Made by a program: the position numbers and the translations under genes. A DNA stretch of 64,000 nucleotides from a virus. Shown here piece by piece: positions 30,144-33,443 of the stretch (the stretch's first letter is position 1; every line of letters begins with the position of its first letter). Location of the stretch: positions 9,810 through 73,809 of IMG/VR virus record IMGVR_UViG_3300043571_000313. One strand, 5' to 3'. The notes beneath the pieces are model-generated. The model worked only from the letters and a program-made list of their open reading frames with translations, had not been told where the DNA came from and did not search any database.

Positions 30144-30167
30144 GGGAAAGTCAGTCTTCCACCCGGG

Positions 30168-30476
30168 CTACGATGCATCGTCGACTTTGTCTTCCCATCG
30201 TGCTTCAATGCGCGAATGCATTGAGGCATTCCCGGGTGACAACAGGCGAATACTGGCCCCAGCGGGCACCACATAGGAGTCTTCGCCACCGGCGGATCTC
30301 CAATAGAACTCGACGGCCCTCGCTAAGGTTACCGGCTCGTTTGAGAGCCATACGTGCTCCGTTGTGCCATCAGCACGGGAGAAGAAGCGATTGAGTTTGG
30401 ACGAATCAACAATGGACTCGACTGGTAGATGGTGACGGGATGACGGAATAATGACTGTTTTCATGAGATGTGTCAT
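30168..30476 (-). CDS. hypothetical protein (lower GC)
   Basis: ATGA-coupled, more AT-rich codons than neighbours. Confidence 0.5.
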   Translation of the reverse strand: MTHLMKTVIIPSSRHHLPVESIVDSSKLNRFFSRADGTTEHVWLSNEPVTLARAVEFYWRSAGGEDSYVVPAGASIRLLSPGNASMHSRIEARWEDKVDDAS

Positions 30477-30775: not shown

Positions 30776-30784
30776 GGGAAAGTG

Positions 30785-31234
30785 TCAGTCTTCCACCCGG
30801 CGGATGTACCAGGCGCCGCCGGAGCGGAGTGATTCGTAACGCGATGAGCCAAGGATGCTCGAGATGAGGAGCAAGTCCTCGATGAAGTTGCCGCCGTCGT
30901 TGGGCGGGTTGGGATACGGCACCCAGCCAGCGGACGGGGACCGCAGCGGCGGCGGGGCAAGGCGGTGCGGCAGCTTGCACGGCACGACGTGGATGCCGTG
31001 CACCTTGGCCACGATGCGGCCACGGTAGGCGAACTCGTCGCCGTCCTTGATGGCGTCCGAGCATTGGCGCAGATCGTAGAGGCAGCCCAGCGCGTCGCCG
31101 TTCCAGCGGCGCGGGATGATGGGTTCGCCCTCGTCGGAGCGGGTGAAGAGGAGCGTGTCCTCCTCGTCTGCCTCGAGATCGGGGATGTTGACGTAAAGGC
31201 CGCTATTGTAAGCGGTGATTTTCCAGGTGGTCAT
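30785..31234 (-). CDS. hypothetical protein
   Basis: MTTWKITAY start after TTTCCC. Confidence 0.55.
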   Translation of the reverse strand: MTTWKITAYNSGLYVNIPDLEADEEDTLLFTRSDEGEPIIPRRWNGDALGCLYDLRQCSDAIKDGDEFAYRGRIVAKVHGIHVVPCKLPHRLAPPPLRSPSAGWVPYPNPPNDGGNFIEDLLLISSILGSSRYESLRSGGAWYIRRVED

Positions 31235-31673: not shown

Positions 31674-31958
31674 TTACACTTTCGAAAAGGAATGCCGCAC
31701 CGTCGTGGGCGCATGCACCCAGTTGCCCGGCGTCATCAGCTGCGGCGCTGACATCAGGCGGTGGTCGCCCTTCAGGCGATGCTTGGACATGACGCGAAAG
31801 GCCTCGCCCTTCCGCATGTGAAAGCGCCCACCGTCCAAGGCCGCAGGCAGGAACGAAACCGGCCGGGGGCGCACGGCCACGGCCACCCGACCAAGCTGCC
31901 CCAGGGCATCCGCCGGCAGATGCCACTTGCTCAGACCCCGGCGAGCGTCCGCGCTCAT
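31674..31958 (-). CDS. hypothetical protein
   Basis: ATGA-coupled to 31955..32254. Confidence 0.45.
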   Translation of the reverse strand: MSADARRGLSKWHLPADALGQLGRVAVAVRPRPVSFLPAALDGGRFHMRKGEAFRVMSKHRLKGDHRLMSAPQLMTPGNWVHAPTTVRHSFSKV

Positions 31959-32254
31959 GCCCATAGAGCCGGGCGATCGCGCGGCTCGAGATAGCCATTG
32001 GCGAAGAGCCATTCGGCCACCGGAGCGGGCAGGGTCAGGTCGTCACCGTAGGCGAACACGATCTCCTGCCCGGCAAATTCAGGGAACACCTCGACAAAAC
32101 GCGCACCGTTCGCACGGTCGCGGAAAGCGGCAAACACGCCCTTGCGCTTGACCACCGTGAAGCCGATTTCGCGCTTGCGCACGTCCCGGCGCCACTCACA
32201 GACCCGCTCGCGCAGCTTGTCGCACACGAGCGTCACCGTCAGTTTGGATTTCAT
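31955..32254 (-). CDS. hypothetical protein
   Basis: 99 aa; ATG 5 nt after the hammerhead cleavage site. Confidence 0.6.
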   Translation of the reverse strand: MKSKLTVTLVCDKLRERVCEWRRDVRKREIGFTVVKRKGVFAAFRDRANGARFVEVFPEFAGQEIVFAYGDDLTLPAPVAEWLFANGYLEPRDRPALWA

Positions 32255-32322
32255 ACCGATACGCGCCGGCCCCCGTGGACCGCGCGGCGTTTCGCTGGGA
32301 TTTCACCAGCTCATCAGTCGGT
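32255..32322 (-). ncRNA. hammerhead ribozyme, type I
   Basis: Minus strand: ACCGA-CUGAUGA-GCUGG(UGAAAUC)CCAGC-GAAACG...CGUA^UCGGU; all conserved core nucleotides and stems I-III present; GUA cleavage between 32260 and 32259. Confidence 0.9.
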
Positions 32323-32340
32323 TCGAGTCATCTCCTACCC

Positions 32341-32940
32341 TCACGCCTTCGAGGCAATCGCCGCATAGGCAGCACGCACCTGCGCGGCATGCGACGTCGC
32401 CTTCGGCTTTTCGCCGTGCGTCTTCTGGAACGTCAGCTTGGTCGTGGTCTTGGCCGCGCCCACACGAACCGTGTAGGCCACCAAGTCACCGCCGTTGTCC
32501 ATCGCCTCATCGCAATACATGGCCTTGTTCGCCATCAGATCCGCCTTGCGCGCATCTGCGGTCTTTTTGACCGAAGCGCGCTGGCTGTCCGTCAGGCGGA
32601 CATACTTGCCCGGCTGGTAACCCTCGGGAATCGCCGCGCCATGCGCGGTCGCCTTCAGGATCACAACCATGTGCGCCAACGTCGCCACCGGCAGCAGTGA
32701 GACGAACGCCTTGCGGGCTTCCGTCGCGTGGAACTGGGTCAACTGAACCCGCGAGTCCGCGAGATCCAGCTCACTGAGCTCCGAACCGGCGTCCGCCTCA
32801 GCGGCAGCATCTTTCGCCAACTCTTCGGCCAACACCGTGTCATCCTCCAGAATGTCGAGCAGCTTCGCGCTGGCCTCGTCATTCGAGATCAAACCCTTGT
32901 CCAACTGCGCCACGATGTCATTCTTGATCGAGTTATTCAT
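32341..32940 (-). CDS. hypothetical protein, first gene of the leftward early arm
   Basis: MNNSIKNDIV..., 199 aa with an acidic N-terminal half. Confidence 0.65.
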   Translation of the reverse strand: MNNSIKNDIVAQLDKGLISNDEASAKLLDILEDDTVLAEELAKDAAAEADAGSELSELDLADSRVQLTQFHATEARKAFVSLLPVATLAHMVVILKATAHGAAIPEGYQPGKYVRLTDSQRASVKKTADARKADLMANKAMYCDEAMDNGGDLVAYTVRVGAAKTTTKLTFQKTHGEKPKATSHAAQVRAAYAAIASKA

Positions 32941-33443
32941 GAGAAACTCGGTTCCGTCCTGCGGGGTCCGATTGGTCGCTGGCCTGAAGAGGCTTCGCGG
33001 GATCGGGTGCCCCACTATCGGGATACCGATACGCCATTTTTCACGCGCCCCGCTGTAAACCATTTCGCTTGCGACATTTGAACGGCCGTCCGCCACTTCG
33101 CCCCACTACTTTAAGTGCATTCGTGCGCTGCGGCCGAGTTCGATCCGCGTCATGCGACCCACGTAAAAAAATCCGCCGTCGAGCTAAGATTCCATCAGGT
33201 GTGATCCACGCGCCGTCGGTTGCGGTATCGTGGGATTGTAAGTCCCCTTATTGCAACCCATATGCGCTAGCTTGTTCCGGTAGCCCCCCGGCAGTCTCTC
33301 GCGGCTGACTGCTGCCTCGTGCCGGGCGAGTCGCGAACCGGTCGAGCGTTGCTCTAGACCGTCGGACTGCTAACCCTGACACCAGCAGCAACTTGCTGAC
33401 TATCAGTGACCTAACCTAGGCAGAGGTAACAGCAAAATCCGAT

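Follow-up and report, generated by a model that had tools for sequence, protein, structure and literature searches.

The locus lies in a phage record that is complete at 73,809 bp with direct terminal repeats, and the window analyzed here, by which we mean the whole 64,000-nt stretch of DNA, comprises most of that record. The phage is present in many lake-water metagenomes; no RNA runs with its sequence are listed. From approximately position 33000 a row of genes with the usual GC3 signal runs leftwards on the − strand, and upstream of this row are ~1.8 kb without convincing open reading frames (ORFs). The first-pass annotation termed the row an early polycistron, a plausible name for small orphan genes that follow one another on one strand after a 1.8-kb ORF-poor stretch. 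The first two of these genes, which we refer to as gene 1 and gene 2, are separated by an 86-nt gap, the sum of an 18-nt spacer and a 68-nt ribozyme. The features discussed below are as follows.

33023..33034, − strand: exact but core-less 12-mer GCGUA^UCGGUAU in the likely gene-1 leader, 770 nt upstream of its copy at the cut site
32341..32940, − strand: gene 1, 199 aa from AUG 32940, the likeliest start (GC3 0.81, compared with 0.67 in a 52-codon extension)
32323..32340, − strand: 18-nt spacer between the gene-1 UGA and stem I
32320..32339, − strand: competing hairpin GGU..GAG/CUC..ACC, the minimum-free-energy (MFE) fold in 104-nt and 211-nt contexts
32332..32335, − strand: GGAG, Shine–Dalgarno (SD)-like in sequence, 9 nt from the base of stem I; would remain on the 5' product
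32318..32322, − strand: stem I 5' strand ACCGA, which pairs with 32259-32255 in the MFE fold and aligns to the stem I columns of covariance models R1 and R2
32311..32317, − strand: core strand C3-A9, CUGAUGA in sequence; the family columns are invariant except N7
32294..32310, − strand: stem II hairpin GCUGG/UGAAAUC/CCAGC with closing pair G10.1-C11.1 and strands 32310-32306 paired with 32298-32294 (pair probabilities at least 0.99; covaries in the family)
32291..32293, − strand: core G12 A13 A14, invariant in family alignments A1 and A4
32261..32290, − strand: stem III hairpin of 30 nt, from A15.1 (32290) to U16.1 (32261) in the MFE fold
32259..32260, − strand: predicted cut at the GUA triplet, A17 (32260) / U1.1 (32259), by the hammerhead rule
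32255..32259, − strand: stem I 3' strand UCGGU, the would-be 5-nt leader of the 3' product (sequence, MFE fold, R1)
31955..32254, − strand: gene 2, a 99-aa orphan protein whose AUG lies 5 nt past the predicted cut (GC1/2/3 0.68/0.45/0.77)

The longest ORF of gene 1 encodes 251 aa from GUG 33096 and ends with a UGA stop 18 nt before stem I. Given that GC3 and GC2 shift after the first 52 codons, from 0.67 and 0.54 to 0.81 and 0.43, AUG 32940 is the more likely start. No homologue of gene 1 was found besides itself. Gene 2 is, judged from aligned protein sequences, a real gene with AUG 32254 as its first possible start: two homologues (P0002 and P0003, 60–66% identity) begin at the same Met, no possible start lies upstream of this AUG, and P0002 and P0003 do not share its later in-frame GUG codons. 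An AlphaFold2 model of gene 2 has a pLDDT of 57 and is too uncertain to serve as a structure-search query.

Searches of Pfam and PHROG with ten flanking proteins, including gene 2, yielded no family match, and Pfam recognized almost nothing among the large genes of the phage. A blastn search of the locus against the phage GenBank collection gave no match, and the large terminase reaches at best 26–32% identity in this collection, from which we conclude that the phage has no cultured relative. No relatives of gene 1, gene 2, or the helicase were found in IMG/VR, JGI metagenomes, and GTDB genomes, and a DNA pattern of the ribozyme's own arms had no match in metagenomes. Four lake-water DNA runs contained only identical pieces of the contig, such that they hold no natural variation for a test of pairing. 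In one lake-water run, a contig of 1,440 nt aligns to the window only at 32289-32323 (35 nt covering the core and stem II, with 4 differences); its sequence probably represents the hammerhead of another phage from the same habitat. Two small genes elsewhere in the window, on the − strand, have a near-identical 20-nt leader, GGGTGGAAGACTGAC(AC)TTTCCC, right before ATG (30776-30800 and 30144-30168).

The type I hammerhead between gene 1 and gene 2

The RNA read from 32322 to 32255 on the − strand has all invariant core bases, three paired helices adjacent to the core, a GUA triplet, and the topology of a type I hammerhead, which follows from the strand order with stem I open and stems II and III capped. 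The core-flanking pairs 1.1–2.1, 10.1–11.1, and 15.1–16.1 are U-A, G-C, and A-U, respectively, the standard pairs that the rules of Perreault et al. (PMC3088659) demand. Stem III consists of 12 pairs with two single-base bulges, and its length falls inside the family range of ~10–140 nt. Features outside the core that characterize the family are also kept, including loop II UGAAAU, ACC/GGU in stem I, GGUA after the cut, an A after stem I, and an A before stem I that is conserved in at least 90% of the class. In hammerheads generally, fast cleavage at low Mg2+ requires a tertiary contact between stem I and loop II. The core, the helices, the topology, and the family-model scores given below confirm, at the level of sequence, that 32322-32255 is a hammerhead ribozyme, and it would be expected to cleave itself. 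The first-pass annotation had described a complete type I hammerhead at 32255-32322, and every part and coordinate it gave proved correct on the − strand.

The cut is placed between 32260 and 32259 by the rule that hammerheads cleave 3' of H17. Adenine is the residue at H17 in 15 of the 92 unique relatives and cytosine in 74 of them, among the matches listed. The same position had been proposed earlier, together with a 3' product beginning UCGGU-AUG, and it agrees with the hammerhead rule; the AUG occupies 32254-32252. The earlier reading that the cut would separate an upstream GGAG from gene 2 also holds, with GGAG at 32335-32332, 5' of the ribozyme, and no such motif between the cut and the AUG. 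The 86-nt gap contains no other SD-like motif.

We searched the window with a general descriptor composed of a 5-bp stem I, CUGAUGA, a stem II of at least 4 bp, GAAA, a stem III of at least 4 bp, and UH, and obtained a single match; dinucleotide-preserving shuffles gave none (0 of 300). Searching the whole window with Rfam 15 at gathering thresholds gave no match. A check with Infernal and the Rfam hammerhead models had been suggested in the first-pass annotation, and it did not recover the element, as none of these models (RF00163, RF00008, RF02275-7, RF03152) reaches its gathering threshold; the best hit of a lenient search is Hammerhead_3 (RF00008, type III) with 16.1 bits, compared with a gathering score of 48.5. 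The best model relative scores 18.7–19.9 bits in Rfam, likewise below gathering, and 12 loci rich in clear hammerheads gave 0 hammerhead matches in an Rfam search at gathering thresholds. Given that clear relatives fail in the same way, we regard the miss as a property of the models and not of the element. The models of Rfam clan CL00010 (RF00163, type I, and RF00008, type III) and RF03152 (RAGATH-1) describe the same core and three-helix junction; however, the element and its relatives score far below gathering, and the phage type I class is not captured by them.

Relatives in other phages and their placement

We scanned IMG/VR with a pattern composed of the core and loop II of the element with the bases of stem II left free, which matched at least 119 phage loci. 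Complete type I hammerheads with stems I and III account for 119 of the 124 matches listed. A covariance model built from 38 pattern matches, with the window left out (R1), scores the element at 55.3 bits (E 2e-15), and the next best score in the whole phage genome is 10.4 bits. Applied to 52 loci, R1 recovered 99 hammerheads among the matches listed, many of which are extra copies on the same contigs. In the 93 distinct rows, again among the matches listed, 96.7% of cells pair, compared with 26–36% when the partners are slid, and compensatory changes on both sides are present at 13 of the 15 pairs in the same rows. Because the search pattern was derived from the window, R1 is partly circular, and we therefore built a second model (R2) from only the 34 copies that do not match the pattern, which have other loops and N7 variants. 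R2 scores the element at 49.6 bits (E 2.9e-12) with the next match at 10.6 bits, and by both models the element is the sole match in the 73.8-kb phage genome.

Members of the class reside in gene gaps, often as arrays, with 10 copies at locus L113, 7 at L008, and 6 at L106. Arrays of 5–10 hammerheads with approximately one per small gene are found at L113:5975-12700, L008:539-4553, L106:5949-9170, and L016:6026-10571, and neighbors within an array have near-identical cut-site arms. The loci of the loop II UGAAAU type I class in phage contigs, at least 119 in number, are designated L002–L120. One of these contigs has a Twister-P5 ribozyme (L056:1649-1699; 48.4 bits, above gathering) ~1 kb upstream of its type I hammerhead. 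In another (L005:7106-7387, − strand) the hammerhead is located 55 nt downstream of a match to an alphaproteobacterial-type tmRNA that is cut by the contig end; this locus belongs to a subfamily with stem I AAUGUCA that includes ~50 of the listed loci, which are near-identical to one another.

The usual placement of the class is defined on both sides of the ribozyme. An upstream stop codon, mostly UAA, is located 0–2 nt before stem I in 47 of the 92 unique relatives, and an SD motif with a start codon follows within ~100 nt of the cut in 65 of the 92; in these 65 the start usually follows the cut by 13–45 nt or more, with a median distance of 38 nt and a shortest distance of 13 nt (all counts among the matches listed). 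The element departs from this placement, with a stop 18 nt before stem I and an SD-less AUG 5 nt after the cut. The placement rule is a habit of the class and not a requirement for catalysis. Some relatives appeared to have short distances from cut to start; these were artefacts of crude ORF calls, and the real, SD-led starts are located further on. From its sequence, the element is an additional case of the phage gene-gap hammerheads described since 2011, with an unusual placement.

Predicted folds and proposed consequences of cleavage

In an 81-nt stretch the MFE fold is exactly the hammerhead three-way junction; stem I is slightly extended in this fold, by pairs that include the U and G of the AUG. 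In the 104-nt context of the gap, nearest-neighbor folding instead places the competing hairpin 1.5 kcal/mol below the active fold (−36.6 vs. −35.1 kcal/mol), and the pair probability of stem I is ~0.13. This hairpin starts 1 nt past the gene-1 stop codon and hides both the GGAG and the ACC of stem I; as a structure predicted to be slightly more stable than the active fold, it could have a role as a switch. In a 900-nt precursor the hammerhead fold is 5.8 kcal/mol above the MFE, which counts against the reading of an active ribozyme, as do the two bulges of stem III and the competing fold. Once released, the 3' product is predicted to begin with 20 nt that are almost free of pairing.

The motif, its family membership, and the gene geometry are established here; from these, and largely by analogy, we infer that the RNA is cleaved in vivo, what chemical ends result, and how translation and stability are affected. 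We posit, with a probability of approximately three in four, that the element is a competent type I hammerhead whose cut after A32260 insulates a nearly leaderless gene-2 message from gene 1. The ribozyme would be transcribed within the leftward operon of small genes, fold to the three-way junction, and cut itself after A32260, a step that we suggest by analogy with tested prophage hammerheads, given that clustered prophage hammerheads cleave both in vitro and in Escherichia coli (PMC3088659). The 5' product would consist of the gene-1 RNA with the ribozyme as a structured 3' end carrying a 2',3'-cyclic phosphate, and the 3' product would carry gene 2 and the later cistrons with a 5'-hydroxyl and UCGGU alone before the AUG. 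With the RNA cut and the partner strand of stem I lost, the start region would be unstructured, and ribosomes would read gene 2 from an almost leaderless message that has no SD motif and whose stability and translation are no longer tied to gene 1, a natural "insulator". In E. coli, an mRNA that a hammerhead has trimmed to a 2-nt leader is translated (PMC5101355), and downstream expression increases 2- to 10-fold with the ribozyme insulator RiboJ (PMC6206723). We are cautious in one respect, namely that a leader of 5 nt makes the message neither fully leaderless nor SD-led, such that efficient translation is not assured. The absence of an SD motif before gene 2 is not remarkable in itself, because only approximately one-third of the operon's genes have one.

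The unusual geometry and the competing hairpin allow other readings to be considered. The ribozyme might act as an OFF switch that splits a ribosome binding site: the fold of the uncut RNA would bring the GGAG within ~9–12 nt of the AUG in space, so that gene 2 would be translated from uncut RNA only and cutting would silence it, with ribosomes that terminate on gene 1 melting the hairpin 32339-32320 and thereby triggering the cut. A hairpin likewise brings the SD near the start codon in gene 38 of phage T4. In favor of this reading are a sole SD-like motif in the gap 9 nt from stem I with the AUG directly after stem I, a nearly isoenergetic competing hairpin 1 nt past the gene-1 stop, and a start closer to the cut than in any of the 92 relatives among the matches listed, of which 0 combine such a short distance with the lack of an SD motif. 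We nevertheless consider it unlikely, given that gene 2 may need no SD motif when only approximately one-third of the operon's genes have one, that a GGAG would arise by chance in an 18-nt spacer approximately 1 time in 10 by our estimate, that the U and G of the AUG are themselves paired in the stem I extension of the hammerhead fold, and that natural hammerheads usually cut in seconds to minutes and would leave little uncut RNA. The competing fold, the bulged stem III, and the presence of only one copy in the genome could also be taken as signs of an inactive look-alike or a decaying relic that does not cut at useful rates in the cell and serves only as a structured spacer or 3'-end stabilizer, and Perreault et al. 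(PMC3088659) do list inactive hammerhead-like sequences. Their inactive cases, however, deviate in the core, whereas the core of the element has no deviation; the retention of loop II UGAAAU, of the A that precedes stem I, and of GGUA downstream of the cut, all family traits that lie beyond the core, and the lack of a full descriptor match in all 300 shuffled windows also argue against decay, which we regard as highly improbable.

The upstream 12-mer raises the possibility that one core makes two cuts. One exact copy of the cut-site sequence is present 770 nt upstream, on the same strand and within the probable 5' leader of gene 1. The window contains no further copy, even when one mismatch is allowed (0.14 matches expected), and no other 12-nt direct repeat within 1.6 kb is perfect; for a pre-named 12-mer within that distance we estimate a chance of ~1 in 1,000 to 1 in 10,000. 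The core would then also cut at 33030/33029 in a type III hammerhead fold in which gene 1 forms a very large loop I, and pairing with the upstream copy would lengthen stem III to 6 contiguous pairs. The two cuts would free a 770-nt gene-1 RNA with matching ends, which the ribozyme itself or an RtcB-type ligase could join into a circle. Neither inspection of the sequence nor R1 or R2 revealed a remnant of a hammerhead core beside the upstream copy. This copy is locked in its own 6-bp hairpin (UAUCGG/CCGAUA), the two strands of the native stem III are covalently linked as a local hairpin, and the alternative pairing, when forced, is ~9 kcal/mol above the native hammerhead and ~14 kcal/mol above the MFE. 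Substrate-like sites are not enriched in the operon (23 matches vs. 18.9 expected), an exact core-less copy is present in only 1 of the 92 relatives among the matches listed, where the 12-mer includes an SD-like run, and spliced or circular products of clustered hammerheads were sought by Perreault et al. (PMC3088659) and none were found. On balance a second cut is very doubtful. In a wider formulation, to which we give a small probability, the ribozyme would be the hinge of a two-state switch and perhaps also a two-site cutter that excises a circularizable gene-1 RNA with matching ends: the GGAG would be either hidden in the competing hairpin or, by the ribozyme in its folded state before the cut, placed beside the AUG; whether the RNA folds or cuts would depend on ribosomes that terminate on gene 1, and the cut would yield the nearly leaderless 5'-OH message of gene 2.

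Comparison with known systems

Hammerheads of type I are characteristic of bacteria and phages (PMC13725137). The closest parallels to the element are the prophage clusters of Perreault et al. 2011 (PMC3088659), including the ardA triple of Agrobacterium tumefaciens and the cluster of Azorhizobium caulinodans, which have a canonical core and an intergenic position in a polycistronic phage transcript, as is the case here; the role proposed for them, the cutting of long messages to gene-length pieces, could be shared. In contrast to these clusters, the element is a single copy and not part of an array, its AUG is SD-less and only 5 nt from the cut, and the stop codon that abuts stem I in the clusters is 18 nt away. 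The HHphage hammerhead of the haloarchaeal viruses HF1/HF2 precedes the first ORF of an early polycistron by 13 nt, with a 5' end mapped at the cut (PMC3088659), and thus resembles the element in lying just before an ORF of an early-type polycistron. It differs in having a core variant, a need for high salt, a position before the first ORF, and an archaeal host, whereas the element has an entirely canonical core and a position between ORF 1 and ORF 2.

Fungal RNA viruses have type I hammerheads before ORFs, and that of PtFV1 cuts 7 nt before the start of ORF2 (PMC13725137). As in the phage, the ribozyme fills the gap between ORFs and the cut is a few nucleotides before the next start; unlike the phage element, these hammerheads belong to eukaryotic RNA viruses and are without the usual loop–loop contacts. 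A link between cleavage and translation initiation has been proposed for them with eukaryotic ribosomes (PMC13725137). If the phage hammerhead is active, it would resemble RiboJ insulators (PMC6206723) in removing the upstream context and allowing a 5'-OH message to be expressed independently, although RiboJ has a hairpin and an SD motif downstream of the cut and here almost nothing precedes the AUG.

The curated thresholds of Rfam 15 miss a large class of phage type I hammerheads, and such elements are therefore lost in routine annotation. Phage gene-gap hammerheads have been known since 2011, and reviews still list their function as open (PMC6765202); the element described here is a simple test case for that role. 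Its value for such a test is that it is the sole ribozyme in its genome and is located between two defined genes, and because the cut is so near the start codon, a reporter should directly reveal any effect on translation.
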